Shown here: in pieces, positions 1,090 to 61,244 of the stretch
Numbering within the stretch: position 1 is the stretch's first letter
Layout of the letters: each line of letters opens with the position of its first letter
Virus record (IMG/VR): IMGVR_UViG_3300008108_000036
Source of the DNA: a virus
Length of the DNA stretch: 64,000 nucleotides
Strand: one strand, 5' to 3'
Program-made: the position numbers and the translations under genes
Notes under the pieces: model-generated
Seen by the model: only the letters and a program-made list of their open reading frames with translations
The model's database searches: none
What the model was told of the DNA's origin: nothing

Positions 1090-1659
1090 TTATACTTTAC
1101 AGTCAAACGCTTTTATTAGAATATTTAAACTGTATTCTGGAGTAGTGTTTTTGTGAATAATTTGTTGTATAGTGGACTCATATTTTACATCAGAATCCGT
1201 TATTCCGTATACTCCATATGGGTCTGGAGCAGTTGGGGAGTTGCGTTCTCGCGTAGAGTCAAATGGAGTGTAATCTAATTCTAAAGCAACTTGAGCTGGA
1301 GCGACTTCAACTGTGTCGGGATGAGAGTATTGCGGATATAACGTGATAGCTTTATTTACCATCACAACGACTAAATGTCTCATAAATACGTCGTTTACTG
1401 ATGCTTCTACAATTTGTTGCAATTCTACAATTTTGACTTTACCTTTAAGGGCTTCAAATGGTTGTAAGTAATGTTCGAATACATACAACGGAATATAACC
1501 GTTTGCTAATCTAGCGCAATCCTTTATTACATGATACGCACCTGGATTTTGAATTATTATTCCTGTATCAGGCCGAGCTATCGCTTTTTCAGACGGACCG
1601 TATAGTTTAGCTTCTTGGTGCGTACTATTGGACAATAAAATTTCTATAAAAGGTAACAT
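1090..1659 (-). CDS. hypothetical late protein (candidate internal virion protein)
   Basis: 189-aa ORF preceded by an exact TATAAATA late promoter. Confidence 0.6.
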   Translation of the reverse strand: MLPFIEILLSNSTHQEAKLYGPSEKAIARPDTGIIIQNPGAYHVIKDCARLANGYIPLYVFEHYLQPFEALKGKVKIVELQQIVEASVNDVFMRHLVVVMVNKAITLYPQYSHPDTVEVAPAQVALELDYTPFDSTRERNSPTAPDPYGVYGITDSDVKYESTIQQIIHKNTTPEYSLNILIKAFDCKV

Positions 1660-1668
1660 ATCAATATT

Positions 1669-1676
1669 TATTTATA
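1669..1676 (-). promoter_or_regulatory. T4-type late promoter TATAAATA
   Basis: Exact gp55 consensus on the minus strand, 9 nt upstream of the ATG at 1659. Confidence 0.7.
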
Positions 1677-1718
1677 TTGATTTTGTTTGCTTTCTAATAT
1701 AAGTGAAAGTGGCTCTTT

Positions 1719-2189
1719 ATGGGATTAAATATTTTGCAAAAAAGACAACAACTTGCTGATTTGACTGCTAAAATAGCTTTAATTCAACAAGAAGTTTACG
1801 AGTTAGAAAATAAAAATCCTGAACTTACTGCACGTTTACAAAAGTTAGAGAAGAACCAAAAAACGATAATTGAAGAGCTAGATACGCCTATATTTGTATC
1901 AATCGAAAACTTTGGAGAAATCAGTTGTCTTTGGGAAGGAATTGGAGAAATGCCGCAAATAATTGATTGGAAATTTAGCTTTACTGAACATATTAATACG
2001 TTTTTAGAAACAATATTATTTAAAGAAGGGCGTATTTTGCTTTTATTTGAAATGCAAATTCCTGAAATCCAAAACCTACAACACGACCTGTTGAAACTAG
2101 ATGAAAAAGTAAATTTATATAACGAAGAAGTAACTATGTTATACAAGGAGAGTGCAGATGAAGGCGTTTTACAGTTTTATATAAAATAA
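1719..2189 (+). CDS. hypothetical coiled-coil protein
   Basis: 156-aa ORF with heptad-rich termini. Confidence 0.55.
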   Translation: MGLNILQKRQQLADLTAKIALIQQEVYELENKNPELTARLQKLEKNQKTIIEELDTPIFVSIENFGEISCLWEGIGEMPQIIDWKFSFTEHINTFLETILFKEGRILLLFEMQIPEIQNLQHDLLKLDEKVNLYNEEVTMLYKESADEGVLQFYIK

Positions 2190-7974: not shown

Positions 7975-8412
7975 ATGAAGTTGTTTATTGATGCAGCATT
8001 ACCTAAAAAGCAAATAAGATATTTGATGCATCTTATTGCTGTTGATTATAAAGTCACGCAGTTGTCATTTAATAGTCAAGCAAAGTCTCTTGGTGGTTCT
8101 TACAACTTCAATAAAAATAGCATTTTTATTAACAATAAACAACGCAAAAAAACCATGCTCTGCGTGTTTTTTCACGAGTTAGCTCATCATGTTGCAGTTC
8201 AACAAAAAAAATGGATGTCGTATCATGAAGGAACAGATTCTGATATTGCTCCTTCTAAACAATTTGCTATTGAAAATAAAATAGATTTAATAGCCAAATC
8301 ACTTTGGCTTAAATATGTAGACATTAAACAGTGGGGCAATTATCAATTTAGTTACCCAAAAGCAAGAAAAGGTCAGCTTTCAGCTTGGTTAGCAGACTAT
8401 AATTCAATTTAA
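7975..8412 (+). CDS. HExxH zinc-metallopeptidase-like protein (ImmA/IrrE-like)
   Basis: FFHELAHH with downstream IENKID; ATAAATA upstream. Confidence 0.6.
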   Translation: MKLFIDAALPKKQIRYLMHLIAVDYKVTQLSFNSQAKSLGGSYNFNKNSIFINNKQRKKTMLCVFFHELAHHVAVQQKKWMSYHEGTDSDIAPSKQFAIENKIDLIAKSLWLKYVDIKQWGNYQFSYPKARKGQLSAWLADYNSI

Positions 8413-9464: not shown

Positions 9465-9762
9465 TATCATCATACATAAAGCATGCTATCAACGATAGCC
9501 ACATACATATGCATAAAGGGCAAGTTATTAATTTTAAAAAAAATCGCACAACTGCAGAAATGTTTGGTTGCTCGCTTTGATGTTTTAAAAACTCTAAAAA
9601 CCCTTCATTAGGAGCTGATGATAAAAAAAGAGCATACTGAATTCTTAATTTTGTAAATAAATGGAACAATTCTAAATAAGAATATGCTGCATTAGTAGCA
9701 AACCAAATAAACATTAATAAATTTATCCAACCAATACAATAGAAAAACTCCATTAAATACAT
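9385..9762 (-). CDS. membrane protein with CxxC (DUF1360-like)
   Basis: Several TM segments and LITCPLCICMWLS; start probably 9762 or 9753 rather than 9795. Confidence 0.5.
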   Translation of the reverse strand: MYLMEFFYCIGWINLLMFIWFATNAAYSYLELFHLFTKLRIQYALFLSSAPNEGFLEFLKHQSEQPNISAVVRFFLKLITCPLCICMWLSLIACFMYDDIILVPFVYFSSLLIFLTLQKLIQKLL

Positions 9763-9772
9763 AAATATAATT

Positions 9773-10195
9773 ATGAAGTTTGACGAATTATACAAAAGCG
9801 TTTATTTGGCTGAAGAAGAAAAGCAATCTGCGGACTTACCTGCCGAGACAGAGGGTGGATCTACAGTTCCTATGCCAGAAGATTTTGATGACGTCGAACC
9901 AATTCCTCAAGCAGAGCCAGCAACTGAAACAGAAGAAGGACAACCAGTCAATTCAGAAGTTCCTACTGCTTCTACTTTAAAAGATTATATTTTTCAGTTA
10001 GAAGATTTTGCTGAAAAGCTTAATGGAATGGAAGGTAGTTCTTTACAGAGTTTAGTAGCTTCACTAGATAGACCTGGAACACCTTTTGATGGAATTTCTG
10101 GAAGAACAAAAGCTGACATTGTTAGTGTAGCAGAAACCTTGTTATCGATTTCAGAAAAACTAAAAAGCTTTATGATTAATGCTGTTAAGCGTTAA
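9773..10195 (+). CDS. acidic late protein, candidate prohead core/internal protein
   Basis: CATAAATA at 9760; N-terminus MKFDELYKSVYLAE. Confidence 0.6.
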   Translation: MKFDELYKSVYLAEEEKQSADLPAETEGGSTVPMPEDFDDVEPIPQAEPATETEEGQPVNSEVPTASTLKDYIFQLEDFAEKLNGMEGSSLQSLVASLDRPGTPFDGISGRTKADIVSVAETLLSISEKLKSFMINAVKR

Positions 10196-10243: not shown

Positions 10244-11251
10244 GTGGAACTTTCACAAGAGTTTTTGGTTGAAATGATTTACGTGCATTGTAAAAGGGCA
10301 ATGCATAAACGTTATCAAAATATATTTAACGCAGAATGTCCTATATGTAAGGAGGGAAAATCTGCAGGTAGAACTAGACGTTTATTCTATTTTCCAAATA
10401 AACAATATTTTTTTTGCCATAACTGTTCAAAATCTTGGAAACCTTTTGAGTGGGTTAAAGAAGTGACTGGACTTTCAGTACCAGAAATTATTAAACGGAA
10501 TAACGAAAAATCTAATTCGGTAGTGCCATTTATTAAAAAAACAGTAACACATTCTAAATTAGTGAAGGACATACCTGATCTTCCAGAAAATAGTATAGAT
10601 ATAGAAGACGCGTCTCAGGTTGCATTTTTTAATTCGAGTCAGGTTGTAAAAAATGCTATAAACTATTGTGAACACAGACGTTTGCTTACAGCTATAAACC
10701 GCTGTAAGCATTTTTATGTTTCATTAGAAGATAAAATTCATAAGAATAGATTGATTCTTCCGTTTTACGGTGATAACGACAAAGTGGTGTGTTATCAAAC
10801 TCGAGCATTAACAGCTGACCAACATCCAAAGTATTTGACTAAATTTGGAGAGAAACATGTGTTTAATATAACAAATATTATTTCTGATATACCTTATGTT
10901 TTTATATTCGAAGGACCAATTGATTCTATGTTTGTGAAAAACGGAGTTGCAATTGCAGCTTTATCGCCAACAGAAAGTCAGACAGAAGAGCTCAACAATT
11001 TATTGGGCTACGAGAAAATTTACGTTTTTGATAATGATAAAAACAATAAACAAACGTCTAAAAAAATAGAAAAGACAATCAAAGACGGTAAGACTGTATT
11101 TATTTGGCCCAAAGAGTTTAAGAGATTCAAAGATATAAATGAAGTGTGTTGTGAGTTAAAGCTAAATGAGATTGATTGGAAGTTTATAGTAAAACACAGT
11201 TTTAAGGGAAGCGGTGCATTGATTAAGCAAAAAATACTAAGCGCTTTTTAG
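10244..11251 (+). CDS. gp61: DNA primase (T4 gp61-like)
   Basis: Zn finger CPIC...CHNC, RLILPF, YQTRAL, KYLT, TOPRIM EGPIDS and FDND, KDINE. Confidence 0.92.
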   Translation: MELSQEFLVEMIYVHCKRAMHKRYQNIFNAECPICKEGKSAGRTRRLFYFPNKQYFFCHNCSKSWKPFEWVKEVTGLSVPEIIKRNNEKSNSVVPFIKKTVTHSKLVKDIPDLPENSIDIEDASQVAFFNSSQVVKNAINYCEHRRLLTAINRCKHFYVSLEDKIHKNRLILPFYGDNDKVVCYQTRALTADQHPKYLTKFGEKHVFNITNIISDIPYVFIFEGPIDSMFVKNGVAIAALSPTESQTEELNNLLGYEKIYVFDNDKNNKQTSKKIEKTIKDGKTVFIWPKEFKRFKDINEVCCELKLNEIDWKFIVKHSFKGSGALIKQKILSAF

Positions 11252-12540
11252 CGTTTTCCACCAACGGTAGGTGCACCAAAACTTAACCCATCAGCTATTT
11301 TACCAGCTCCTCGAATTACAGACAACCAATCTACGATTTCTCCTTCTCTTACGTAATTAGCAAGAGTCATTAATAATTCATATAAATCTTTAGCTGCTTC
11401 GTTGTTGCCCATGATCGATTTTATATTGCCGATCGTATATCCTCCTTTTCCGACGTCTTTAGCCAATACAACTTTGCCTTCTTCTGCATCAAATGCATAA
11501 AATCCTTGTTCTTTTGAGGAGTTACTTAAAAATACTTCATATGCAGTATCGCCAGTTTTAGGGCCAGGAGGTTTAAACTTACCTTGTTCGTCCTTTGGAA
11601 ATAATCTATTAATTTCAGAATCAAAAAATCTCTTGCCTGCTAGACCTATGTTTAATAATTCTGTATGTATCGCTCTTGTGTATATTTTGTCGCTGCTAAC
11701 CTTATTGCTAAATGCGTAGGTTCCTCCAGCGTATTTCTTTGGATGTAGTAATACGTCTGTTACAGCTGGACCTTGATCGGGAACACTTGTTGTTGAAAGT
11801 GTAGCTAATCTTGCTTTTTTTCTTGCTTCTAAAATGTAAAATATAGCATCTTTAATGCTGTTGCCTGCAAATTTATCGAGCGTTATTTGTCCTACATAAT
11901 TTTGTTGTAATTGCTTTCTTATTTGAGTAGCTACATATTGTCCTTCAGCTGTTGCGACAGGAAAGTCTATAGGATTAGCTGTAGTTCTGTTTTGAATTGA
12001 TACTTTAAATTTGTCAAGTTGAGTTTTAAAAGCGGTTATTGAAATTGGAGCTTTTTTAAATCTTTCTACTACAGAAGATGGGTTGCCTGGAGCTAAATTT
12101 GCTACTTGAGCCATAAGCTCAATATAAGGTAAATATTGTGAGTACTCGAAAAATTGAGAGGCAGAAGTTCTTGTCCAGCATTTTATCCAAATATTAAAAA
12201 TTTTAGTTAAAACGTCTAAGGTGGGTGCAGATCCTGGACCATAAGCGTTTTGATAAATTACATTAACTTCATTAATTTCTCGCGTTAAATTTTTCGGAGT
12301 AAAGACCACATCCGAGCTTTCTGATGCCTTTCCGTCACTTGCTGGTTTATCTACATCAAAAAATAATTCAAATAAAGGTTTTGCATCTAAAGTAGCTTCA
12401 GTAGGAGTTTCGTCTTCCTTTGAATCGTCAGTTGTTTCTTTAGACGTATCGTCTGAAACCAGTGGTTCAGCTTCTTCGGTCTTTTGTAGAGTATTTTCAG
12501 TAAGAACTGATTCGATTAAGTTTTTAAAATTTACAAACAT
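11248..12540 (-). CDS. hypothetical late protein, candidate internal virion protein
   Basis: AATAAATA upstream; N-terminus MFVNFKNLIESVLTE. Confidence 0.6.
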   Translation of the reverse strand: MFVNFKNLIESVLTENTLQKTEEAEPLVSDDTSKETTDDSKEDETPTEATLDAKPLFELFFDVDKPASDGKASESSDVVFTPKNLTREINEVNVIYQNAYGPGSAPTLDVLTKIFNIWIKCWTRTSASQFFEYSQYLPYIELMAQVANLAPGNPSSVVERFKKAPISITAFKTQLDKFKVSIQNRTTANPIDFPVATAEGQYVATQIRKQLQQNYVGQITLDKFAGNSIKDAIFYILEARKKARLATLSTTSVPDQGPAVTDVLLHPKKYAGGTYAFSNKVSSDKIYTRAIHTELLNIGLAGKRFFDSEINRLFPKDEQGKFKPPGPKTGDTAYEVFLSNSSKEQGFYAFDAEEGKVVLAKDVGKGGYTIGNIKSIMGNNEAAKDLYELLMTLANYVREGEIVDWLSVIRGAGKIADGLSFGAPTVGGKR

Positions 12541-12604
12541 TAAAGTTATTTATTTGTTAAACTACAAAAAAACTCCAATATGACATAAATAATTGAGCAT
12601 TTAA

Positions 12605-13720
12605 ATGAAAATTGAAGATCAACAATTGTTAGAACAAGTTTATTCTGAACAAATTTTAGAAGAAGGAGTTTGGGATCAAATAAAACATAAAGCCTCTAAT
12701 GCTGCTGGAGCTTTAGGTGGAATGGCTTCTAATGTTGGAAATAGATTAGCTAATGTAGTTAGAGCTCCAGAAAATCAAAAAAATCCAGTAGAAGCTCAAG
12801 TACAAACTCTTTGGAATTCGTTTAGAAATAAAACCTTAAATGCCATCGAAAAATATTTAAAACAACAATCTACTTTGCTGAGCACAGAGCAAAATGCTAA
12901 TTCGTCATTTACTAAACAGCTAAACGCAATTAAAGAAGCTCAAAAATTCTTGCAGGATCCTCCAAATTATATAAAGAATAATCCGTCTGCTTCCTCATCT
13001 TCTCCCCGTTCAGTATCTGATGTAAGCGGAGGTACAGCTTCAGGTATAGAATCGGGAAGTAAAGATGGTTCTAGTGCTGTGCCGTCTGCACCAACTGTGC
13101 CTAGCCGTGGTGTAGCACCAACTCCGGAGCCAGCACCTTCCTCAGATAAGCCTGAATCAACTGAAGTGACAGCATCAGCTCCGAAAAGAGTTAATTTTAC
13201 TACTCCTCCTTCGAGCATTAGCATTAAACCGACAGGTGATGCTAAATCAGCTGGAATTTCAGGAGTTCCAACTCCTGATTACAGCAAACTTGTGACGGTA
13301 GTAGCTAATTTAAAACAAAAAGATCCCGAAACATACAAAACAATTAAAAATGATTTAGAGAAAGTATTTGCAGAAAATCAAAATTTTAAAAACTATTTTA
13401 ATTTAACGTTATTGGAGGCAACCAAAAAAAACCCAAAAGCTTCTGCTGAGTTTGCAGAAAGAGATGAAGACGTAAGGTATCACGGCACTCACCCTCTCTC
13501 AGTAGAAACTATGAAGTTTTTTTCAGAATTTAGAAGGCTTTGTGAACAATTTATTCATAATTATGATAAAATAAAAAAAGTTGGAGAATTTGGAAAATCT
13601 GCCAATAGAAAAACGTTCTATACTGCTGATACTTTTTTAAAGCGTTTGCTTTCAATTTTATATATTCCTAAAGCTGGAGATTTGCAGGGAGCAAATCCTT
13701 TTAAAGACAAAATGGAATAA
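12605..13720 (+). CDS. hypothetical late protein with S/P-rich linker, candidate internal virion protein
   Basis: CATAAATA at 12584; ILEE|GVWD leader; internal FKNYFNLTLLE. Confidence 0.6.
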   Translation: MKIEDQQLLEQVYSEQILEEGVWDQIKHKASNAAGALGGMASNVGNRLANVVRAPENQKNPVEAQVQTLWNSFRNKTLNAIEKYLKQQSTLLSTEQNANSSFTKQLNAIKEAQKFLQDPPNYIKNNPSASSSSPRSVSDVSGGTASGIESGSKDGSSAVPSAPTVPSRGVAPTPEPAPSSDKPESTEVTASAPKRVNFTTPPSSISIKPTGDAKSAGISGVPTPDYSKLVTVVANLKQKDPETYKTIKNDLEKVFAENQNFKNYFNLTLLEATKKNPKASAEFAERDEDVRYHGTHPLSVETMKFFSEFRRLCEQFIHNYDKIKKVGEFGKSANRKTFYTADTFLKRLLSILYIPKAGDLQGANPFKDKME

Positions 13721-13745
13721 ATGATTAAATATAATAAATAAACAT

Positions 13746-14099
13746 ATGAAAATGACGTTTGATGAAATTTACAATGCTACACTCGCTGAAAACACAGTTC
13801 CAGCTCCAGCAACTCCAATGGCGAATCCAGCCAATTTACAAAAAGATTTACAAGGATTGTTTTTAAAACATAAAGACAATCCAGCCCTTTTTCAAGAACT
13901 AGAAAAACAAATGAAGCAAGCTCAACAAGCTGCTCAACAAGCTGCTAAGGCTAATCAACAGCAACAACAGCAGCAACAAGCTGCTGCTAAAACTAACACC
14001 CAACAGCCAGCACCTCAACAAAACAACAATACCAACCAGCAACAAAATCAACCTCAAGCTAATAATCAACAACAAAATAATCAGCAAAAGAAGGTTTAA
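13746..14099 (+). CDS. Q/N-rich late protein, candidate internal virion protein
   Basis: AATAAATA at 13733; MKMTFDEIYNATLAE; poly-Q/N C-terminal half. Confidence 0.6.
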   Translation: MKMTFDEIYNATLAENTVPAPATPMANPANLQKDLQGLFLKHKDNPALFQELEKQMKQAQQAAQQAAKANQQQQQQQQAAAKTNTQQPAPQQNNNTNQQQNQPQANNQQQNNQQKKV

Positions 14100-15552: not shown

Positions 15553-16301
15553 TGACTAATAATTTTTTATTCTTATCTGATGATAAAATCTTCTACACAT
15601 TAGAAGGAGAAGGGGAATATATCGGACAACCTTCTGTTTTTATGCGTATGTCTATGTGCAATCTTACCTGTAAAGGTTTTGCTTCAGAAAATAGTCCAAA
15701 TGGTTGTGATTCTTTTATTTCGTGGTCAGTAAAAAATAAAATGTCTTTTGAAGACATTTTTCAATTAATGGAAGAAAAAAATTATATCGAGCATCTTCGA
15801 AATAATGCTATTTTTAAGCTAACTGGTGGAGAACCATTAATAAATCAAAAGCAACTTCTTAAATTTATTGAAGAATTTATTGGGCGATATAAATTTGTTC
15901 CGAGAATTGATTTTGAAACAAATGCTACATTAATTCCAGATGAACGTTGGATACGAGAATTTAAAGCTACGTTTACTACTTCTCCGAAACTTACTACTAA
16001 TGGAGACCCAGAAGAAAAAACATACAAACCAGAGGCTTTGAAGTGGCACGTTAAACACAATTCTGGGTTTAAGTTCGTCATTACTTCGGATAAAGACATC
16101 GAAGAAATTTGGAGAAAATATGTAAACGACGATAAAGGCATTAATGTCCCACTAAATCGAGTTTGGTTCATGCCTTGTTGTGGATCAAGAAAAGAACACA
16201 TCGAAAGAGCTCCTGCTGTTGCTGAATATGCAAAAGCAATGCATGTTAACTTTAGCCCAAGAATGCATCTTCTAATTTGGGACATGGCTTTAAAAGTTTG
16301 A
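15552..16301 (+). CDS. queE: 7-carboxy-7-deazaguanine synthase (radical SAM)
   Basis: FYTLEGEG, CNLTC...CDS, LTGGEP, ETNAT, TSPKL, KFVI, SPRMH. Confidence 0.92.
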   Translation: MTNNFLFLSDDKIFYTLEGEGEYIGQPSVFMRMSMCNLTCKGFASENSPNGCDSFISWSVKNKMSFEDIFQLMEEKNYIEHLRNNAIFKLTGGEPLINQKQLLKFIEEFIGRYKFVPRIDFETNATLIPDERWIREFKATFTTSPKLTTNGDPEEKTYKPEALKWHVKHNSGFKFVITSDKDIEEIWRKYVNDDKGINVPLNRVWFMPCCGSRKEHIERAPAVAEYAKAMHVNFSPRMHLLIWDMALKV

Positions 16302-16331
16302 CATATTCATTAACAAGCGTAAATATACTCC

Positions 16332-16976
16332 ATGCGTATAGCTTTAATGGGTGCTCATTGTGTGGGCAAAACGACACTAATAGAACAAATTCTTAAACAA
16401 TGGCCTATGTATAAAAGGCCTTCTAAGACTTATAGAGAAATTATTAAAGAAAAACAATTATCAATAAACAAACAAGGAACTAAAGATTCTCAAAAAATAA
16501 TATTAAATGCTTTAATAGACGAATTGCAAACAGCCAGTACGTCAGACGATAAATTTATTATTTTTGATAGATGCCCTATTGATAACGTTGTATATACGTT
16601 ATGGCATCATGCAAAAGGGACAGAGGGATTTACTTCGGATTTTGTAATGGATTGTAAAACAATTGCAGCTTTCTCACTTAAACATATAGATGTAATTTTT
16701 TATGTTCCGGCTAGGCCTGAAATTCCGTTAACTCCTAGAGAGGGAAGAGAAGTTGATCCTATTTTTAGAGAAGAGATTGACAATATATTTGATTCGATGG
16801 TTTCTTCATATGAGAAAAACACAGGAGCGTTTTTTCCTTTAGAAGATTGTCCCGCTGTCATTAGGCTCGACGGACCTCCAGACATGAGATTGCCTCAAAT
16901 GAAACTATACATTAAAGATAGTGGGATTGGATATGGTGAAGAAGACGGCAGCTTAATAGACACTTCAGCAATCTAA
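16332..16976 (+). CDS. P-loop nucleotide kinase-like protein (AAA_28/dNMP kinase-like)
   Basis: GAHCVGKTT and FDRCPIDN. Confidence 0.75.
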   Translation: MRIALMGAHCVGKTTLIEQILKQWPMYKRPSKTYREIIKEKQLSINKQGTKDSQKIILNALIDELQTASTSDDKFIIFDRCPIDNVVYTLWHHAKGTEGFTSDFVMDCKTIAAFSLKHIDVIFYVPARPEIPLTPREGREVDPIFREEIDNIFDSMVSSYEKNTGAFFPLEDCPAVIRLDGPPDMRLPQMKLYIKDSGIGYGEEDGSLIDTSAI

Positions 16977-17425
16977 GCTCTACTAAAATTAATCTCTTTA
17001 GCGTTTTTAATTTTCAAACGAACAGCAGTTTTAATAAATTGTTTGTTGTTAGTTTTTTGCTGTTGTTCTAAGCATTTTGATGCGGCCATTTCTAACTCTG
17101 GTGAATCTATTTCATGTATTCCGCAGTAATAAAATGGGGTTTTTTCTAAAAGTTTTGTAATATGCTTTGTAATAAACGTTTTAAATCTCGAATTAGCTGA
17201 TTTAGTAGAAATAAATACTACTTTAGGAAAAGAGCTGTTTATTTTATAAAATTTTTCGGCCAGTTCATTTATAAAAAAGCTTATAATTATTTTTTTTCCA
17301 TCAGCTGAATTTAATGAAATATTGTGTTTGGTTGCGAATTTTATTGACTGTTTAATTGCTGACTCAAAATACGGATATACATCTATAGCACATATTCTAG
17401 ACTTCGGAAAAATTTTAGTTCTCAT
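16973..17425 (-). CDS. hypothetical protein
   Basis: 150-aa ORF; weak resemblance to a degenerate 5'-nuclease N-terminus (ICAID). Confidence 0.5.
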   Translation of the reverse strand: MRTKIFPKSRICAIDVYPYFESAIKQSIKFATKHNISLNSADGKKIIISFFINELAEKFYKINSSFPKVVFISTKSANSRFKTFITKHITKLLEKTPFYYCGIHEIDSPELEMAASKCLEQQQKTNNKQFIKTAVRLKIKNAKEINFSRA

Positions 17426-17842
17426 CTATTTAAAGTTCTTAGGAACACGACCCAAACGGCAATTTATTATTCCGTTATAATAATCTTCTTTTAATAAAAC
17501 GTCTTCTTGGATTTGCCTTTTTATTTCTTTATATCCTAATTCGAATTTAGAAAAACACCACTCTAAAATTACAAAGCTAAAGTTTTCTTTGCCGTATTTT
17601 TTAATATCTTCATTAAGCTCTTTAGATGACCCAGTATATGTTTTCCAGTCCGATTCTTTTGTGTCGAGACGTTTGCGCTTTTTTCCTTTAAGTGGTTTTC
17701 TTTTTACTTTAAACCTGCATTGCTTCTTACCAATGTACTTTTTTGGACAAACTAAGGCATTATTGGTAATTTCATAAATAAACCCGAATGCATCTTCACT
17801 AAAGCTTAAATTCTCCGCTAAAATCCAATGTCCTAAATCCAT
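17426..17842 (-). CDS. GIY-YIG-like putative endonuclease
   Basis: GFIYEITN...KYIGKK, ESDWKTYTGSS, YYNGII. Confidence 0.75.
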   Translation of the reverse strand: MDLGHWILAENLSFSEDAFGFIYEITNNALVCPKKYIGKKQCRFKVKRKPLKGKKRKRLDTKESDWKTYTGSSKELNEDIKKYGKENFSFVILEWCFSKFELGYKEIKRQIQEDVLLKEDYYNGIINCRLGRVPKNFK

Positions 17843-17843
17843 T

Positions 17844-42860: not shown

Positions 42861-44832
<1,972 letters not shown>

Positions 44833-47912: not shown

Positions 47913-49922
47913 ATGTCCGACGCAATGTTATCTAGAGGTAGAGGCAGACCAAAAGGAGCGAAAAACAAACCAAAGAGAGGTCGACCAAAAGGATCTACCA
48001 AAAAAGTTATACAAACATCTCAGCAGAAAAGTGCTCTTTATTTGGAGCCGAATAAAGCACAACACACTCAAACTGCTGAAAGCGAATCGAGTTTAGATTC
48101 TTATTTAGACGATTCGAAGTTACTTGAACAAGGATTTAACTTGGATACGAATAAGATCATTAATAATGATCCCATAAATGCTTCGTTTTTTTATAGAGGA
48201 TCTAAACATGTACCTATAGCAGGAGCTCAATATGAGTTTACTGCTGATATGATAACGGAAATGAAAAAATGCAAAGATGATATTGTGTATTTTGCAGAAA
48301 ATTATTTTTTCATTGTTAGTTTAGATAGAGGTAAAGAAAAAATTTCTTTATATGAAGCTCAAAAAAGAGTATTAAGAACTTTCGTAAGAGAAAGACACGC
48401 CGTTGTATGCTCTTCAAGACAAATTGGTAAGTCAACGATGCTTACGGTATTTTCTTTATGGATGGTGTGCTTTAATACAGATTATAGAGCAGCTATTGTT
48501 GCAAACAAAGAAACTACTGCAATTAACATTTTCAAACGGATAAGAATGGCTTATGAACAGCTTCCGAATTTTATTAAGCCTGGTGTTAAAGAATACGGAA
48601 AAACCGGATTAACGTTAGGAAACGACTCCAGCATTATTGTATCAACCACTACAGCTACGTCAATTAGAGGTGACTCGCTAAATTGTGTTCTACTAGACGA
48701 GGCAGCATATATTGAAAGTCATCTTTTAGAGGATTTTTGGTCTTCTGTTATTCCTACAGTATCTTCAGGCAAAAATTCAAAAATATTAGTAGTTAGTACT
48801 CCTAATGGCATCGGCAATAAATTCTACGAAATATATTCTGGAGCGGAGGCTGGAAAGTTAAAGCAATGGAAATCGGAAAGAATTGATTGGTGGGATGTTC
48901 CGGGGAGAGACGAAGCTTGGAAATTGACTCAAATCGAATTGCTAGGCTCGGAAGAAAAGTTTTTAGAGGAATATAATAACACGTTTTTAGACGAGGCATC
49001 TTCTGCTGTTGGAGCCTCAGTAATTGAAGCGTTTAAACAAAATAAAAAAGAACCAATTTGGACTTCAGAATCAGGAGATTACAATGTGTATGAAACTCCC
49101 AACAAAAGCCGCTTGTACGTAATAGGAGTAGACGTTGGAGAAGGAATTGGACGTGCAGCTTCAGTAGCTCAAGTGTTAGACGTTACAGACCTACAGCACA
49201 TTACACAAGTGGCTGTGTTTGGATCATCTACAATTGAACCATATCAATTTGCAAACAAGCTGTTAACATTAGCTAATTCGTGGGGCGCCCCTCCAATGTT
49301 GATAGAACGCAACAACTGTGGTGCTCAATTGATTGATGCTTTATTTCATCATCACAAATACGAAAAGTTAGTTTCATATTCAAAAATTTCCGAGCAAGAC
49401 AGGTATAATAAAACAAGAAATATTGGAGTGCTATCTCATACTAATATACGTTTTGATGGAATTCAAAACATGAGATATTGGGTAAATCACCTTCAATGTG
49501 TTGCAATCAATGATGTAACTACAATTTCCGAGTTTGAGACATTTGTTCGGTTTCCGAATGGAAAATTTCGCAAAAAAAATGATGCGTTTTTTGACGACCG
49601 AATAATGGCGTTAGTTTGGGCTTTATTCATTTTAACCCCAGAAATTTGTCAAGAATTTTTTACCATAGCCGATTACGACGATCAGCAAAGGCCATTAAAA
49701 ATAGAAAACAACGGCTATTGGGAAATTGATCCTGAAAAGTTTTTATTAAAAGAGTTAAACGAACACCAGAAATACATTACTGACGTTAAGCAATCTAGCG
49801 ATGCTCCAGTGTTTCCGGTTCTAGGTGTTACTCAACAAGAACTTGATGAGCTTGATAAGTATTCTTTAGACGTAGATCAATTAATAGAATCTGGCTATCA
49901 ATTTTTTAATCCAAACAATTAA
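47913..49922 (+). CDS. gp17: terminase large subunit gp17 with N-terminal AT-hook motifs
   Basis: SRQIGKST, IRGDS, LLDEAA, VSTPNG, GVDVGEG, IERNN, DDRIMA; N-terminal RGRPKG twice. Confidence 0.95.
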   Translation: MSDAMLSRGRGRPKGAKNKPKRGRPKGSTKKVIQTSQQKSALYLEPNKAQHTQTAESESSLDSYLDDSKLLEQGFNLDTNKIINNDPINASFFYRGSKHVPIAGAQYEFTADMITEMKKCKDDIVYFAENYFFIVSLDRGKEKISLYEAQKRVLRTFVRERHAVVCSSRQIGKSTMLTVFSLWMVCFNTDYRAAIVANKETTAINIFKRIRMAYEQLPNFIKPGVKEYGKTGLTLGNDSSIIVSTTTATSIRGDSLNCVLLDEAAYIESHLLEDFWSSVIPTVSSGKNSKILVVSTPNGIGNKFYEIYSGAEAGKLKQWKSERIDWWDVPGRDEAWKLTQIELLGSEEKFLEEYNNTFLDEASSAVGASVIEAFKQNKKEPIWTSESGDYNVYETPNKSRLYVIGVDVGEGIGRAASVAQVLDVTDLQHITQVAVFGSSTIEPYQFANKLLTLANSWGAPPMLIERNNCGAQLIDALFHHHKYEKLVSYSKISEQDRYNKTRNIGVLSHTNIRFDGIQNMRYWVNHLQCVAINDVTTISEFETFVRFPNGKFRKKNDAFFDDRIMALVWALFILTPEICQEFFTIADYDDQQRPLKIENNGYWEIDPEKFLLKELNEHQKYITDVKQSSDAPVFPVLGVTQQELDELDKYSLDVDQLIESGYQFFNPNN

Positions 49923-50548: not shown

Positions 50549-52708
50549 ATGAGAATCATCACATCACCAGGCGTTCAAATCACAGAAAAAGATTTATCAT
50601 TAAAAGCCAACATGCCAGCCGGAACAAACATTTTAGTTTCTGGTTTTGCTAATCAGGGTCCAGTAAATGAACCAATCATGATTACATCAGCAACAGAATT
50701 CGAAAACGTATATGGCACACCAACAACACCAGCTGAAAGATATTTTTATTATACTTGTAAAGAAGTATTAAATTCTCCAGGAGTATTAACAACTCTTCGT
50801 TTACCTTATGGTGCAGGAGATGGATCAGAGGTTGCTGAAAATGTGCACACCGCTCTTTTTTATCCAATGATGGAAGAAACAATAGACGTAGACGGCAAAT
50901 TTGGATATCCTGTTGGTGCTGGAACAATAACTCAATGGAGAATTGGCAAACCAGTTGCGATGAATTTAACAGATGATGAATATGAACTAGCTCAAAAAGG
51001 AAACATTGATTGGGCAGAAACCTCCAACGGGAACACAGTCATTAAAGATAGCAATGGATATAATGCAGGGTTTGTGGTATTAAATGACGCTCATGCTGTA
51101 GTTAATGAAATGTCAGAAGGATATTACTTTGGACTTTGTGACAACCTTGCTGTTTTATCTTCAGATTCTCCTGACTTTGAATCAATTCAAAAAGCATGGA
51201 CTTTAAATGATGATACAGGAACTTTATATGACCTCCCAGAATCACGTTTAGATTTTCATTTAGCTGCAACAAAAGAAGATAGCGATAATGGAATAACCTC
51301 AGTTTCAGAATCACTAGAAAAAGTTGGTTTCGTTGGATATGAAACTCCTTCTTTTCACGATCACATTTCTTTAGGTCTCTTTAAAGTTAGACGCTCTACT
51401 GTAGATCCTTCTTTACTAACTTTAGGTACTACGGAAAGATATATTGGCTCATTTGACCTAAACAGACGAGTAGCTAATCAAAGAGGAGGTATGCCAGTAA
51501 GTTCTTTCTTAGAAGACATTATTAACAACGCTTCTCCAGCTTTTAAAATTTTCATTAATCCAAAAGTTTCTAATGATTTCGTTTGGTCTGTTGCAAGCAA
51601 GTCGGAGCCTACTGCAAGAATTGCCGTTGATGACGAAGCTAAAGCGTTATTTCCTGTAGGAACGTTTTCGCCTAACACTCGTGCTGCTGATGACGCCAAA
51701 ATAATTGGTGTTGTTCCAGGAAAGCTCGACAGAGCATTAAGAACTTTAGAAGCAATCGACGACGTAACAATCGATGTAGTAACAGACGGAGGTCTTTCAA
51801 CTATATATGCATGTACAGAGACTCCTGGAGTTGCATCATTTAATGACGAGACATACGTTGCCGATCCAAAAGCACCAGCTTTACTAGAAAATTGGCAGTC
51901 TGTTGCGAATATGTTAATAAATTTCTCGCAAAACATTCGTAAGGATTGCATGACAATCGTCGATCCGCTACGTCAAACATTCGTAAACGGAAGAGACTCC
52001 AAAACAATTGATTTAAAGTCTAAAACATTTACAGATGATATTTATTCACCTTTAAGAAAGCAAGCATCAATCGAATCCAATTATACAGCAATGTATGCAA
52101 ACTGGATTAAAATCAGCGATTTATTCACTGGAAGAAAACTTTGGGTTCCTTTCTCAGGATATGCAGCTGCTATTTATGCTAGAACAGATGCAGTCGAAAA
52201 TCCTTGGGCAGCTCCAGCTGGTATGACAAGAGGAACATTCCTCTGCTTAGATGTAGCTTTAAACCCAAATCAAAAGCAAAGAGATAGACTATATGAGATC
52301 GGAACAAACCCAGTCGTATTTTTTAACGGAGACGGTTATGTTGTAATGGGACAAAAAACACTACAAAAGAAACCTTCAGCATTTGATCGCGTAAACGTTC
52401 GTAGATTATTCTTATTCTTAGAACGCGCAGTTCAAAGAACCGTTAAATACTTTGTGTTTGAACCAAACACAGACTTAACAAGAGCTCGTGTAAAAGCAGT
52501 TATAGATCCAATTTTTGCATATGCAAAATATTCACAAGGATTATATGACTATATGATTGTAGTAGACTCTAGAAATAACACTCCTGATACAATTGATCAA
52601 AACGAGCTTATTGTGGACATCTACATCAAACCAGTTAGAACTGCTGAATTTATCTTAGTAAACTTCATTGCAACACGCACTGGACAGAACTTCACAGAAT
52701 TAGTTTAA
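50549..52708 (+). CDS. gp18: tail sheath protein gp18
   Basis: SPGVQITEKDLS, GPVNEP, PWAAPAG..RG, GQKTL, FDRVNVRRLF, FEPN, IYIKP. Confidence 0.96.
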   Translation: MRIITSPGVQITEKDLSLKANMPAGTNILVSGFANQGPVNEPIMITSATEFENVYGTPTTPAERYFYYTCKEVLNSPGVLTTLRLPYGAGDGSEVAENVHTALFYPMMEETIDVDGKFGYPVGAGTITQWRIGKPVAMNLTDDEYELAQKGNIDWAETSNGNTVIKDSNGYNAGFVVLNDAHAVVNEMSEGYYFGLCDNLAVLSSDSPDFESIQKAWTLNDDTGTLYDLPESRLDFHLAATKEDSDNGITSVSESLEKVGFVGYETPSFHDHISLGLFKVRRSTVDPSLLTLGTTERYIGSFDLNRRVANQRGGMPVSSFLEDIINNASPAFKIFINPKVSNDFVWSVASKSEPTARIAVDDEAKALFPVGTFSPNTRAADDAKIIGVVPGKLDRALRTLEAIDDVTIDVVTDGGLSTIYACTETPGVASFNDETYVADPKAPALLENWQSVANMLINFSQNIRKDCMTIVDPLRQTFVNGRDSKTIDLKSKTFTDDIYSPLRKQASIESNYTAMYANWIKISDLFTGRKLWVPFSGYAAAIYARTDAVENPWAAPAGMTRGTFLCLDVALNPNQKQRDRLYEIGTNPVVFFNGDGYVVMGQKTLQKKPSAFDRVNVRRLFLFLERAVQRTVKYFVFEPNTDLTRARVKAVIDPIFAYAKYSQGLYDYMIVVDSRNNTPDTIDQNELIVDIYIKPVRTAEFILVNFIATRTGQNFTELV

Positions 52709-52753
52709 TCAACTTAACCCGTCAAATATAACAATCAACAATAAATAAAATAT

Positions 52754-53398
52754 ATGGCATCCTCAACTAAAAGAAATTTAACAGACTTCTACGACAATGC
52801 AATCAGAAGAGATTTCGCGAGAGTTTTTCAGTTCTCTCTTCTGCAAATCGGCAATACAAGCTTTCTTGATGACGATCAATTAGTATACGTAGAAACAGCA
52901 GCATTACCAGGAAAATCAATCAACAACGTTGCTGTTCCTTACATGGGTCTTCAATTTAACGTTCCTGGCACAATATCGTATCCAGGATCTGACTCATATA
53001 ATATTCAGTTCCGTTGCGATGCTGATTATCAAATACGTGGTCAGCTCGAAGAAGCTCTCAGACAAGTTTGGGACGACAACACATCAACTGGCGAATACGG
53101 AATCCCAAGCACTGCTAGTATTATGTCTTTAGCATTATATGACAAAGGCTCTAAATTTACCGACGATAGGAAAAACATTCGTCAGTATGACTTTTATGGA
53201 ATGTATGTCAAAACTCTTAGCGACGCTCAATACGACATTAAAGATAATGGAGCAATCGTAACGATTACTGCAACCATTGCATATCAATACTGGAGAGTAA
53301 CGGGCGGTTCCAACAGCACAGCAGAGAACAGAGCAAGTAACATTGCTGCACCACTTCCTTCCCTCCGCAATCAAGTCAGTCCTCAACCAACTGCTTAA
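52754..53398 (+). CDS. gp19: tail tube protein gp19
   Basis: AALPG, VPYMG, PG...Y, TIAYQYW; follows the sheath; ATAAATA at 52741. Confidence 0.85.
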   Translation: MASSTKRNLTDFYDNAIRRDFARVFQFSLLQIGNTSFLDDDQLVYVETAALPGKSINNVAVPYMGLQFNVPGTISYPGSDSYNIQFRCDADYQIRGQLEEALRQVWDDNTSTGEYGIPSTASIMSLALYDKGSKFTDDRKNIRQYDFYGMYVKTLSDAQYDIKDNGAIVTITATIAYQYWRVTGGSNSTAENRASNIAAPLPSLRNQVSPQPTA

Positions 53399-56567: not shown

Positions 56568-57065
56568 TTAACGTCCGATGTTAACTCTTAATGCTCCCAT
56601 AATTTCTTCTGGGTGTTCATTTTGAACCACTTTTAGTACAAGCTTAAGAGTGGGTTCGTCGAAAATATTACGCTCAGAATATGTTTTGATGAATTCTTTT
56701 AACTCATTAGCGTTTAATTTTGAATATCTATAAGGAACTTCAAGGTCAAATTTTTCCTCAATTGCTCTAATAAGATCTAAGATTTCATCTCTTGAAACTC
56801 CACTATAAAACCTGTTTGTTCTTGCAACTGATACGTTTTTAGCTGGTAAATTTGTTGTCTCCTCAGTTTCTTGAGGCAAGCTTTGCTCATTAACTTTTTT
56901 TAACTGAGCTTCAACTAATTCAATAAACGGAGTTTTTTCTTCTTCTATAATTGCACCAGCAAAAGGAGATTGTTTAATAAGTTGAATGTCTTCTGAAGTT
57001 AACGTTTCTTTGTTACCAAAGACATAAATTTCAGCTAATTCTCTTGCTTTTCTGTGATTATTCAT
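56568..57065 (-). CDS. hypothetical protein, third gene of the VWA/AAA cluster
   Basis: 165 aa; ELAE leader; internal PFIELVEAQLKKVNE. Confidence 0.6.
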   Translation of the reverse strand: MNNHRKARELAEIYVFGNKETLTSEDIQLIKQSPFAGAIIEEEKTPFIELVEAQLKKVNEQSLPQETEETTNLPAKNVSVARTNRFYSGVSRDEILDLIRAIEEKFDLEVPYRYSKLNANELKEFIKTYSERNIFDEPTLKLVLKVVQNEHPEEIMGALRVNIGR

Positions 57066-57077: not shown

Positions 57078-58541
57078 TTATCTTTTTAAAACTTTTTTAA
57101 TTCTTGGTAAGGAATCTTCAGCAAAAGTTTTTTTAACTTTTGAATCATAATCTCCTCTTAATAAGAAGGTCATCATTTTATCTAATTGTTCAACAGTAAA
57201 ATCTTTTTTAAAGTGTGAAAATAAATTAGTTTTCCACTCATCTTTAAACGCATTTGTTATTTTAGCAATTCCTATTAAAACCCCTTGATCTGACTCAGAT
57301 AGTTCTTCGGTTTTTTCAGCTCTTACTAAAACAGGCTTTAATTTAGCTAAAACAAACATCAATAAAGCATGGAGTTTATCTCGATCAGTTTTTTGCAAAG
57401 ATTCATCTTCTGCAGAGCTAACTATTGCAGCATAATCAAACGATTTAAAATGCTTCATGAAAGCATCAAATGCTCTAGCCCAAACATCTCCACATAATCC
57501 AGCAGCACTTTGTTTGATTGCGACAATCTTAGGAGTTTGAATTGGCATTCCTTGAGCTTTAGCTTCTTGATAATGCTGATCAATATTTCTAATTTTTTGC
57601 GATAAATTCATGATAGCTCTAGGAGAAGCCCATTGTTTATGAGTTTCAGCTCCAGCAAATCCACCTGAAGGCTTTGGATTAAAGTTTTCTTCTGGGTGAG
57701 ATTTTACAAATGCTATAATTCTTTTATCAACTCCAGACTTTTCTGCATAGTCTAACCATTGCTCAGCATCAGCTATTAGGATACCTTGGTCGAAACGATT
57801 CGTAAAAGCAAACGGTAAAGGATTTCCGCCAAATTCAGCTCCCAAGTTACCAGCAGCTACGACCGCAAAATCATCAGATAAAGTAATGTTTCCTACTTTT
57901 TTATCTACAATTTTGTACAAAGCTTTAATCATAGCATCTGATGCATTATTGCATTCATCTAAAAATAAAATACCATCAGCTGTAGGTTGAGCCATAACAT
58001 AAAGCCATTTAGGCATTTGAGTCTCCAACCATTCATCTTTCTTTGACATATCTGGAATGCCTGCTAAGTCTGTTGGATCTAAAGAATCAGCTCGTACGTC
58101 AATGTAAAGAAAATATTTAGAAGGATCTTTAATGATTTCTCTTTGCTTTTCATTGGAAATCTTATCCCAATCAACGGCTATTTTTCCTTTTGCTTTGCCC
58201 ATTGATAGTGTAAACGACTGTACCATTTGACTTTTACCAATACCAGGATCGCCGTAAATTAAAAGAGGCTTTTTAGTTCTGTATGCTAACGATATAAAAT
58301 CATGCATTCTCATGTAATCCCAAGAAGGCAAACCAGTCTTTTGGTCTGTTTCTACTACAGTACCTTCATCCCATTCCATATCTTGAAATGCTGGATCTAT
58401 CTCATCATTTAAATCTTCAATCGTGCTGTCTGCAGCTTGCTTAATGTCGTCAGCAATTTGATCTTTTTTTGACGCTTCAGATAGGAGAAGATCTTTATAC
58501 AACTTAGTAAAACTTCCCTTTTTAATGTTTTTCAATTCCAT
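57078..58541 (-). CDS. MoxR-like AAA+ ATPase
   Basis: GDPGIGKS, DLAGIP, LFLDECN, AAGN, NRF, SPRA. Confidence 0.88.
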   Translation of the reverse strand: MELKNIKKGSFTKLYKDLLLSEASKKDQIADDIKQAADSTIEDLNDEIDPAFQDMEWDEGTVVETDQKTGLPSWDYMRMHDFISLAYRTKKPLLIYGDPGIGKSQMVQSFTLSMGKAKGKIAVDWDKISNEKQREIIKDPSKYFLYIDVRADSLDPTDLAGIPDMSKKDEWLETQMPKWLYVMAQPTADGILFLDECNNASDAMIKALYKIVDKKVGNITLSDDFAVVAAGNLGAEFGGNPLPFAFTNRFDQGILIADAEQWLDYAEKSGVDKRIIAFVKSHPEENFNPKPSGGFAGAETHKQWASPRAIMNLSQKIRNIDQHYQEAKAQGMPIQTPKIVAIKQSAAGLCGDVWARAFDAFMKHFKSFDYAAIVSSAEDESLQKTDRDKLHALLMFVLAKLKPVLVRAEKTEELSESDQGVLIGIAKITNAFKDEWKTNLFSHFKKDFTVEQLDKMMTFLLRGDYDSKVKKTFAEDSLPRIKKVLKR

Positions 58542-58569
58542 AGGATTATTTATTTATTTTGAGCTAATT

Positions 58570-60369
58570 TTAATGGTACACATCAATTTCATGCACTGGT
58601 CCAAATTTATCTAGAGGAGACTTTGATCCCTTTTCTACAATTAAAAAGAGTTTGTTTTTAATATTAGGAAGATCAGGATTACTTTCTATATAACCGTCAG
58701 TAAATACAATAAATCCATTAAATTTCTTTACTGGATACTTTTTATCCAAATAATGTTTTACTGAAGACAATGTTGTACCTCCACCTTCATAGGGCAAATT
58801 TTGTAAAGCTTGTAAAATCTGCTGAGAATTAGTTTTAGATGAATCTATGTCTATATCACCATAAACTTCACTATGCCACAAAATAACCTTCATTTTTACT
58901 TTAGGATAAGCTTTTATAACATTCAACAATTCTGAAACAAATAAAGCAATCACATTTTCTGAAATAGAACCACTAGTATCCAAAGCCACTACAGTTTCAA
59001 TTTTGGTTGATTCGTTTCTTACTCCAGGAGCATAATATCCAGCAGCAAATGCTCTTTTTTTAGGCCTCATCCAAGTAGGACGTGTTTTTTCCATTCCTAC
59101 TACAAAATTTCTTAATAGTTGCTTCCAATTTGTCTTTGTTTCAAAGACTTGTTTGCTTAAAGATCTCGGACCTCCCTTACCTAAACCTCTTGAAGCGATT
59201 GCTGTTAAAGTTGATTGAACTTTGTCTTTAACCTTAGATTCAGCATTTTTTCCACCATCTGGCTTATAGTCAGGATCATCTGTTGGAGTATCTAAAGGAG
59301 TAGGAGCTTGTTCTCCTTGAGTAATATGCTTATCAAAACTTTCTCTTTTTTTTGCTATTTGGTCAATAATGTCCGACAAATTACCTTTGATCTTAGCTTC
59401 ACCTTGATTTTTTTTGCTGTTCTTTTTTTCTTGTTCACTGTCGCCGCTATCTTCTATTTTTACTTTAGCATTTTTATCTAAAGCATAATCCTCACCTTCC
59501 TTGCAATCAGAATCTCCACCTTTTTTTAAAGTAATTTCTCCTGAAAGTATTGGCATAACATCAGTAGAAGGAACTCCAGTTGCTAATGATTCAGTTTTAA
59601 TGTCGTCCCAATCTATATCAAGAATTTGTTTTCCAGGCTGGTTTCCCTTTACAGCTTTAACCGTTCCGTCTCTTCCGTCGACCTTTGAACGTACTCGGTC
59701 ACCAACTTGGTATACTTTCTTTTTAGGATCTTCTCCTTCTTGTTTTGGATCCTTTTTCTTATTTTTATTATCTTTATCTATAGCTTTTTCTAGTTCGTCA
59801 TATAATCCTTCAGCACTCATGTCTGTTATATCAACTTCAAGAATCGTAGCATTTGTTGTAGGATCTTTTAAAATAGCAAAATATGAATCTCCTCGTTTTT
59901 CCGGAATCAAACCACCTTTAGGAAGTTGCATGTTCATCTCGATTAGATCTTTATTCATTACAAAATCCGTAGCTATATTCCACTTATTCATGTCTCTAGT
60001 CTTTTGTCTGAAAAACGAAAGAGTCATGATGTGCAAACATTCGTGAGCCAACACCCCTAAAGTTTCTTCTTCTGACATGCTTAACGTAAATTTTGGATTC
60101 ATGTAAATGTTACCAAAATCATCAACAGCCATGGTAGGTAAATCATTAGTAGGAACAGTTTTAAGCTTAGCTAACAAAATTCCAAACCAAGGATAATCTC
60201 TATAAAGTATTGTTTTGCACCGAGTCAAACGGAAATCAAATTCTTTAAATAAATTTTCATCCATCATTGTTGAAGAATTTTGTTCTTGCTGATTAGCCGT
60301 TTCTTCAGAAATAAGCACCTTGTTTTTATATACAGCAAAGATACTTTCATCGAGATTTTTAAAATACAT
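58570..60369 (-). CDS. HExxH metallopeptidase-VWA protein (DUF2201-like)
   Basis: PTMAVD, LAHECLH, WNIATD; MIDAS LDTSGSI, GGGT, FTDG. Confidence 0.88.
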   Translation of the reverse strand: MYFKNLDESIFAVYKNKVLISEETANQQEQNSSTMMDENLFKEFDFRLTRCKTILYRDYPWFGILLAKLKTVPTNDLPTMAVDDFGNIYMNPKFTLSMSEEETLGVLAHECLHIMTLSFFRQKTRDMNKWNIATDFVMNKDLIEMNMQLPKGGLIPEKRGDSYFAILKDPTTNATILEVDITDMSAEGLYDELEKAIDKDNKNKKKDPKQEGEDPKKKVYQVGDRVRSKVDGRDGTVKAVKGNQPGKQILDIDWDDIKTESLATGVPSTDVMPILSGEITLKKGGDSDCKEGEDYALDKNAKVKIEDSGDSEQEKKNSKKNQGEAKIKGNLSDIIDQIAKKRESFDKHITQGEQAPTPLDTPTDDPDYKPDGGKNAESKVKDKVQSTLTAIASRGLGKGGPRSLSKQVFETKTNWKQLLRNFVVGMEKTRPTWMRPKKRAFAAGYYAPGVRNESTKIETVVALDTSGSISENVIALFVSELLNVIKAYPKVKMKVILWHSEVYGDIDIDSSKTNSQQILQALQNLPYEGGGTTLSSVKHYLDKKYPVKKFNGFIVFTDGYIESNPDLPNIKNKLFLIVEKGSKSPLDKFGPVHEIDVYH

Positions 60370-60386
60370 ATTGATAATTATTCTAA

Positions 60387-61244
60387 ATGAAGAATTTTTC
60401 GCACTTTTTTAAACAAGCTTTAAATGAATCAAAGTTCAGAGACGTTGATGAAAATTTAATCAATAATATTAAAGATACAGTAAAAACGTATAATCTTGTT
60501 TATAAAAAACTTAGTAAATCAGATGCTAAATTACTTACCACGAAAATAGATCAAGATTCTGACTGGTGGGAATACTTTAAAGAGGCAAAAGTAGATAGAA
60601 TGGCAGAAATAAAACAATTCAGATTTAAAGATTTAACAAAAAACAAAAATAAAAAAGTCTCAATTATAGTAGCATATGGAGGGACAGATAGCACTTACGC
60701 CTACTACGATGAAGATAACGAAATTGTAGTATTAAATCACGATCAAATAAAAGGTTTATCAGATTTAGAAATTGAAGCAATAATAACGCACGAATTAACA
60801 CACGGATTTCAAGAATACAAAACCAGCTCCGATCCATATAAAAAAGCAATAAAAAAAATGTCAAAAGGATTGCCATACAACAGACAAACATATTTTTATG
60901 AGCCGTTAGAATTTGACGCACATGCAACAGAATTAGCTCATAGAATTAGAGAAGAATTTTATTCCAGAAAAGAAGCAATCGAAAACGCTATTTTACCAGA
61001 AACTAAAAAAGTATTAGAACGAAAACTTGAAAAATTTTTACTAGAGTTAAATTTATTTTCAAGATCTGATCGCAAATCATATTTAGAATATAAAGAGTTA
61101 CCATTACCACAATTTTGTTCTACACATGAAGATTTTTTAGAAACAGTAGCAAAAAATCCAAATCTATGGAGAAAACTTAAAGAAAAGCTTGCCTCTTTAT
61201 ATATAGATCTAACAACTGAAGAGGAAGAAGAAAAGCAAAACTAA
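60387..61244 (+). CDS. HExxH-motif protein, candidate internal virion protein
   Basis: ITHELTH...YF.EPLEFDA; N-terminus MKNFSHFFKQALNE. Confidence 0.6.
   Translation: MKNFSHFFKQALNESKFRDVDENLINNIKDTVKTYNLVYKKLSKSDAKLLTTKIDQDSDWWEYFKEAKVDRMAEIKQFRFKDLTKNKNKKVSIIVAYGGTDSTYAYYDEDNEIVVLNHDQIKGLSDLEIEAIITHELTHGFQEYKTSSDPYKKAIKKMSKGLPYNRQTYFYEPLEFDAHATELAHRIREEFYSRKEAIENAILPETKKVLERKLEKFLLELNLFSRSDRKSYLEYKELPLPQFCSTHEDFLETVAKNPNLWRKLKEKLASLYIDLTTEEEEEKQN

Follow-up and report, generated by a model that had tools for sequence, protein, structure and literature searches.

A shared N-terminal leader resembling the T4 capsid-targeting sequence on unrelated, predicted late genes of an uncultured T4-like phage

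The capsid-targeting sequence (CTS) of phage T4 is the textbook route by which a phage delivers proteins to its next host and serves as a tool for delivering proteins; most of what is documented concerns a few small proteins of T-even phages. Is a device of this kind also used, on other and larger sets of genes, by T4-like phages far removed from those in culture? The question is raised by a 64,000-nt stretch of the IMG/VR record IMGVR_UViG_3300008108_000036 (the window, meaning this whole stretch), from an uncultured, distant relative of T4, in which otherwise unrelated open reading frames (ORFs) begin alike. The original prediction held that about 11 proteins carry a T4-type leader that is cut after (L/I)-x-E and are packaged in the head. 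All eleven ORFs that it named exist, with the coordinates and N-termini it gave, and the leader is convincing on eight of them: 9773, 12540(-), 12605, 13746, 18107(-), 58541(-), 60369(-) and 60387 (genes are named by their start position, with (-) for the minus strand). As judged from sequence, the shared N-termini are probably capsid-targeting propeptides like the T4 CTS.

The shared element is a short amphipathic helix of the form F/L-x-x-h-h...h-x-E (h, hydrophobic). A Phe or Leu is followed three residues later by a hydrophobic pair, then by further hydrophobics and finally by h-x-E, which lies at residue 12-29; all eight robust genes, and a ninth, less certain ORF, 18130, have L, I or M at P3 of this end. 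Behind the leader there is usually a disordered, fast-evolving linker and then a mature domain that is unrelated between genes, and the mature parts belong to differing Pfam families or to none.

From the window leaders we derived a test pattern, [FL][DEKTSN][EKNHQ][LIVAF][YIVF] followed after 1-7 residues by [LIM]-x-E. It matches seven N-termini in the window where 0.16 are expected; among 19,071 internal positions it matches 3 (post hoc Poisson p = 5e-10). Related DNA provides out-of-sample comparisons. An IMG/VR contig of 124 kb (G001; 58% complete) is syntenic with the entire window at approximately 70% nucleotide identity and reaches 61 kb past its left end; these 61 kb, which have no counterpart in the window, contain two matches against 0.14 expected (p = 0.009). 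Contig G003 has three against 0.23 expected (p = 0.0017), and contig G002 (L096) has two N-terminal and no internal matches. Two cultured phages served as negative controls, HTVC008M, with the pattern in 0 of 195 genes, and S-RSM4, with 1 of 223, namely the neighbour of g23. Pairwise BLOSUM scores of the N-termini show a modest surplus of high-scoring pairs (57 versus 31-41). A looser pattern applied to sets of homologues was too noisy, because it also matched inside the DUF2201 domain. The observation behind the original prediction, a shared N-terminal leader on unrelated ORFs, is thus borne out by the excess in the window and by its recurrence in independent related DNA.

Three of the robust leader genes encode enzyme-like proteins. 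The gene at 57078-58541 (minus strand) encodes a 487-aa MoxR-like AAA+ ATPase (AAA_5 24.6 bits; phrog_1297 E = 2e-47), with a leader whose L-S-E end falls at residue 22 and is followed by Ala (P1'). An AlphaFold2 (AF2) model gives low confidence for residues 1-60 (predicted local distance difference test, pLDDT, 44-63) and a confident AAA+ core. Long-form metagenome homologues of approximately 480-550 aa share the leader, the consensus of 33 being M(8x)F(3x)Y(6x)E-A, and short forms of 330-370 aa begin right at Walker A. The adjoining gene, 58570-60369 (minus strand; 599 aa), combines a DUF2201_N metallopeptidase domain (97 bits) with DUF2201 and VWA domains; its leader ends I-S-E at residue 22 and H-E-C-L-H lies at residue 109. 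Here, too, the leader belongs to the long homologues, the shorter ones (390-430 aa) beginning at the domain. An AAA_5-type AAA+ gene thus stands next to a VWA gene in the window, as in MoxR AAA+/VWA chaperone pairs. N4-like and other cultured phages likewise encode MoxR and DUF2201/VWA domains side by side, but without the leader and linker, because their homologues align only from residue 42-49 (DUF2201/VWA) and approximately 62-97 (MoxR); cellular forms of both proteins have no leader either. In a more distant relative (L216, 8175-9978) the DUF2201/VWA gene is apparently split into two ORFs, one of 243 aa, which comes first and keeps the leader, and one of 355 aa. The third enzyme-like protein, of 285 aa with an HExxH motif (60387-61244, plus strand), has a leader ending L-N-E at residue 14, followed by a conserved S/A-K-F-R; full-length proteins from 25 clusters of homologues retain both this leader and the E|S/A-K-F-R junction, even at identities as low as 31%.

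A further leader family is built around a 430-aa protein (11248-12540, minus strand), in which a leader ending L-T-E at residue 15 is joined to a helical domain by an acidic, disordered linker. The AF2 model has a helix at 5-18, pLDDT below 50 at 18-49 and a confident all-helical domain at approximately 50-400 (mean pLDDT 82). The family comprises at least 76 representative clusters at 50% identity, and the leader is present in 52 of the 67 full-length representatives, where 0.9 are expected; it ends most often at residue 14, and the next residue is most commonly Ala. No PHROG or Pfam family could be assigned, tblastn against cultured phages returned nothing, and the family profile had no match in T4, HTVC008M, P-SSM2, S-RSM4 or the contig G005. 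A look-up in the Atlas gave nothing usable, Foldseek against PDB and BFVD found no hit at E <= 0.001, and a wide VIA-align search gave only generic helical bundles (best Z 4.8). On the modelled structure, this appears to be an abundant phage protein family with a fold that matches no solved or predicted viral structure.

Altogether, a leader ending h-x-E, most often followed by Ala, occurs in dozens of environmental homologues from four families (MoxR, DUF2201/VWA, HExxH and 430-aa). This modularity across homologue families, seen in their sequences, is the strongest evidence for the leader.

The four other robust genes encode proteins of 87-371 aa. At 9773-10195 (plus strand) a 140-aa acidic protein has its leader at residues 1-14, ending L-A-E; the G001 ortholog keeps the leader (L-K-E), as does the more distant L216 ortholog. 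A 371-aa protein (12605-13720, plus strand), for which an Atlas look-up returned nothing, starts with an extended leader, D-Q-x-L-L-E-x-x-Y...L-E-E, a type also found on several genes in the extra region of G001. The 117-aa Q/N-rich protein at 13746-14099 (plus strand) has a leader ending L-A-E at residue 15, and that of its ortholog is near-identical, maintained despite synonymous changes. The 87-aa protein at 17844-18107 (minus strand) has a polybasic C-terminus and a long leader whose I-N-E end lies at residue 29; in the ortholog the leader is canonical, with 13 residues and the end L-Q-E.

The same separation of leader and body is seen between the window and its relative. Across the orthologs in G001 the leader and h-x-E are retained and the sequence directly behind them is replaced; in the 430-aa protein, for example, the acidic linker has been swapped for one rich in Pro, Ala and Thr. 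The eight N-terminal stretches differ by 32 synonymous and 50 mostly conservative changes, and the F, L, Y and E positions are intact. The onset of the motif also varies, from residue 3 to 11 in the window and from 2 to 14 in homologues. A floating start combined with key residues that persist across synonymous changes argues that it is the peptide, and not the mRNA, that is under selection.

An effect at the level of the mRNA was worth considering because of the promoters. The motif [AT]TAAATA occurs within 35 nt upstream of seven of nine leader genes and of 9 of 74 other genes (Fisher p = 8e-5). Copies lie near the ATG of 9773 (ATAAATA at 9761-9767, 5 nt before the ATG), 12540(-) (12547-12553), 13746 (13734-13740), 18107(-) (TTAAATA, 18114-18120), 58541(-) (58547-58553) and 1659(-) (1665-1671), and 12605 has one at 12585-12591. 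The original prediction had made its case conditional on the leader being commoner in late than in replication genes, and the leader does go with the late motif; of the two motifs that it proposed, TAAATA holds and TAATTA as a late motif is unsupported. Judged from the promoter motif alone, the leader genes are probably transcribed late. The motif ends 5-6 nt before many late-gene ATGs, that of the tail tube gene included (52741-52747), so that with a T4-like transcription start the mRNAs would be leaderless or have a 5' untranslated region of 1 nt, which fits the absence of Shine-Dalgarno sequences. Three pairs of leader genes stand head to head (18106-18130, 12540-12605 and 60369-60387) with start codons 17-64 nt apart, and in the 18107/18130 pair the late motif of each gene overlaps the first codons of the other. 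A 145-aa putative metallopeptidase (window 7975-8412; DUF6782 31.7 bits, Peptidase_M78 23.3 bits) has the late motif and no leader.

Given 5' untranslated regions of approximately 0-1 nt on many leader genes, the likeness could in principle have no function in the peptide and reflect AT-rich codon bias, RNA constraints on the translation start of near-leaderless late mRNAs, or chance, and an unbiased motif search did place the N-termini just slightly above controls. This explanation, already disfavoured, is scarcely credible: the motif floats in position, its key residues survive synonymous codon changes, the enrichment is N-terminal and replicated in other DNA, and the tail tube gene (52754) and the terminase gene (47913) have the same promoter spacing and no motif.

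If the peptide is what is selected, the nearest known counterpart is in T4, and the window itself is of T4 type. It has a G+C content of 32%, is densely coding, and contains T4-type replication and recombination genes, a large terminase (47913-49922), a tail sheath (50549-52708) and a tail tube (52754-53398). Megablast against GenBank phages gave zero matches. At the protein level, cyanophages and other marine T4-like phages come closest among cultured phages (31-33% identity); both the polymerase of this phage and the capsid protein of its clade are approximately 31-33% identical to those of any cultured T4-like phage. The phage itself encodes DnaK, GroES and GroEL (window 40926-44832), and G001 has an additional 842-aa Clp-type ATPase (82853-85381).

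The leaders of T4 (NC_000866) are built similarly. Those of the internal proteins IPII and IPIII have 10 residues ending A-E then Ala, that of IPI has 19 residues ending T-E then Ala, and both begin M-K-T plus an aromatic residue. The T4 CTS requires only approximately 10 residues, gp21 cuts after L/I-x-E, and T-even internal proteins share little beyond the CTS (PMC9026906, PMC3012670). As in IPI, IPII, IPIII and Alt, the window has putative N-terminal propeptides on unrelated late proteins, with an aromatic residue near the start, an (L/I)-x-E end, often Ala next, and a T4-type late motif upstream; its short and long forms parallel IPIII and IPI, the long one of 17844-18107(-) resembling IPI. 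The likeness is one of shared build, as 10-20 residues are too short for a statistical test of homology. The window leaders differ in their consensus, in the long disordered linker that usually follows, and in standing on many more genes, the MoxR/VWA pair and the HExxH protein among them. A second comparison is with the giant phages phiKZ, 201phi2-1 and SPN3US, which have many head-internal proteins, some of them enzymes, cut after Glu by a gp21-related protease, and whose inner-body paralogues share conserved N-termini in propeptides that are mostly longer than 100 residues and cut at S/A-x-E (PMC5694885). Head-internal enzymes and processing at Glu sites would be common to both, but the window leaders are only 12-29 residues long with L, I, M or V at P3, not long propeptides with S/A-x-E sites, and the replication and tail genes of the window phage are of T4 type.

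Could the leader be a signal that has nothing to do with the capsid, such as a zymogen-type inhibitory propeptide, an oligomerisation helix or a handle for chaperones of the DnaK, GroEL or ClpB type? Three of the tagged proteins are peptidase- or ATPase-like, and the phage and its relative encode the chaperones named above. We nevertheless regard this as quite improbable, since the tag is also found on small non-enzymatic proteins, the build and Glu-Ala end match the T4 CTS, and the scaffold protein of the clade begins with a look-alike sequence.

That scaffold gene is on L137, a contig from the same sample as G001, where the gene order is that of T4: protease, small gene, scaffold, capsid. 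The protease (1468-2145), a match to Peptidase_S77 with 80.6 bits, shares 30% identity with T4 gp21, and the scaffold, besides its leader-like N-terminus, contains 16 [LI]-x-E sites where 8 are expected. A Peptidase_S77 protease is present in G005 as well. On G002, approximately 20 kb separate a Gp23-type capsid gene from VWA and MoxR genes that bear leaders, and relatives of this capsid gene are abundant in IMG/VR; across 76 recovered loci for the Gp23 capsid protein, a Glu and a small residue after it are conserved at the propeptide boundary. The clade protease and the capsid junction make a gp21-type specificity plausible for the lineage, short of proof for this genome. The original prediction of a CTS-like leader cut after (L/I)-x-E is therefore supported by conservation, by its recurrence in four families, by the resemblance to T4 and by the protease of the clade, and it stops short at the processing enzyme, which neither the window nor G001 contains.

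Several observations weigh against a capsid-targeting function. The window and the 124 kb of G001 hold no protease, scaffold, portal or capsid gene, and the PF03420 and PF07068 profiles found none in G001. What ties L137 to the window is only a clade in common and the sample that it shares with G001; the window MoxR protein was sought in five head-module contigs and found in none. The motif is short, and its significance stems from N-terminal anchoring together with the h-x-E end. A MEME-type check of the N-termini, as the original prediction had proposed, did not single the motif out: a de novo expectation-maximisation search overfitted, with a log-likelihood of 160 versus 155 for internal segments and 120-148 for shuffles. 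A 9-column position-specific scoring matrix of the helix core was not specific either, because amphipathic helices are ubiquitous. P3 is occasionally M, V, F or S/T instead of L/I; S/T occurs in the window only in 1090-1659(-). Two leader genes, 60369(-) and 60387, have no TAAATA upstream and no recognisable late motif. Finally, a AAA+ ATPase that forms hexamers would fit awkwardly through the tail channel.

This last point bears on whether the proteins travel to the next host at all. The leaders may target the prohead core while most of the proteins act as assembly factors or core components that are later degraded or expelled, with the MoxR/VWA pair remodelling the scaffold and the acidic proteins resembling gp67 or gp68. 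T4 gp22, gp67, gp68 and gp21 do carry the same type of site and are destroyed (PMC9026906), the product of 9773-10195 is acidic as is T4 gp67, and MoxR/VWA pairs are chaperone-like. In the archaeal spindle virus ATV (Acidianus two-tailed virus) the MoxR-type AAA+ ATPase p618 is a virion component that acts within the virion together with a VWA partner, p892 (PMC4124505). ATV is the one precedent for a virion-borne pair, and we found none for tailed phages; unlike the window phage it has no head protease or N-terminal targeting leader, and the role of the pair there is in extracellular tail growth. We consider a predominance of such assembly factors unlikely, as most tagged proteins have one N-terminal junction followed by a folded, conserved domain, like the internal proteins and Alt of T4, which stay in the head, and the small basic tails at 17844 and 18130 resemble DNA-associated internal proteins.

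The number of tagged genes is smaller than the predicted 11 within the window, with eight robust and three that are weak or uncertain. One of the latter is a 38-aa ORF at 18130-18246 (plus strand; ATAAATA at 18106-18112), which from its sequence fits the class well: its leader ends I-M-E at residue 12, it has a late motif, and the 26 residues behind the leader form a basic peptide containing C-W-x-G-Y...P-N-C. Its status as a gene is uncertain because it has no ortholog in G001, and it is the sole copy among the window, G001, G002, G003 and G005. The 189-aa protein at 1090-1659 (minus strand) is a weak candidate with a start of the F-I-E-I-L-L type and Q-E|A at residue 16, P3 not being L/I; in its ortholog, with M-K-F-I-D at the start, the Q-E|A-K-L-Y junction is conserved. 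Also weak is the 165-aa third gene of the MoxR operon (56568-57065, minus strand), with just a conserved L-A-E at residues 10-12; the gene is conserved downstream of MoxR in G002 and L216.

Further tagged genes lie outside the window, as seen in the extra region of G001. At its right end the window cuts a gene of which it contains a C-terminal piece (63834-63998, minus strand), the start being beyond the window end; the G001 ortholog of this gene has the extended leader type. Tandem small genes at 122001-124473 of G001 (L009) end K-L-P-E-(I/L)-E-G-I-F, and several begin with the extended leader D-Q-x-L-L-E-E-A-Y; the C-terminal K-L-P-E-x-x-G-I-F tag is on none of the window's proteins. On G002, five tandem paralogous small genes of 147-212 aa (16286-18992), located between the capsid gene and the VWA/MoxR pair, adjoin a 535-aa gene and that pair; four of the five have leader-type starts, two of them matched by the strict pattern.

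How would capsid-targeting leaders work in this phage? Docking to the scaffold, cleavage, packaging and retention in the head, and ejection are inferred by analogy with T4. The leader genes would be transcribed late, and the helix would dock each protein on the scaffold core while the prohead assembles. Cleavage after Glu by a prohead protease of the gp21 type (Peptidase_S77) would follow, and the mature protein would remain in the filled head, from which at least the small basic and acidic proteins would exit with the DNA at infection. Cargo from the window would include the MoxR AAA+ ATPase, its DUF2201/VWA partner, the HExxH protein, the 430-aa helical protein and small acidic, basic and Q/N-rich proteins. 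With the leader present on no fewer than eight late proteins that are unrelated to one another and include three enzymes, the protein cargo of the head is probably unusually large. A bolder version is conceivable but doubtful: that the clade, large and of freshwater or other environmental origin, loads a working MoxR/VWA-metallopeptidase machine, an HExxH protease and the 430-aa protein of new fold, injected ahead of gene expression as a toolkit for host takeover or anti-defence, with at least 25 injected proteins when genes outside the window are included, far above T4.

The CTS kind of leader is itself known; new here is the principle in a distant uncultured clade and on a much larger, enzyme-containing set of proteins. 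A deep uncultured T4-like lineage would thus use the same device on many more genes, including enzyme machinery and a family of at least 76 clusters without known fold. Should packaging be confirmed, virion-internal proteins could be predicted in metagenomes by a simple sequence rule, foreign proteins could be loaded into capsids with a second natural set of leaders, and the known range of proteins injected by tailed phages would widen considerably.

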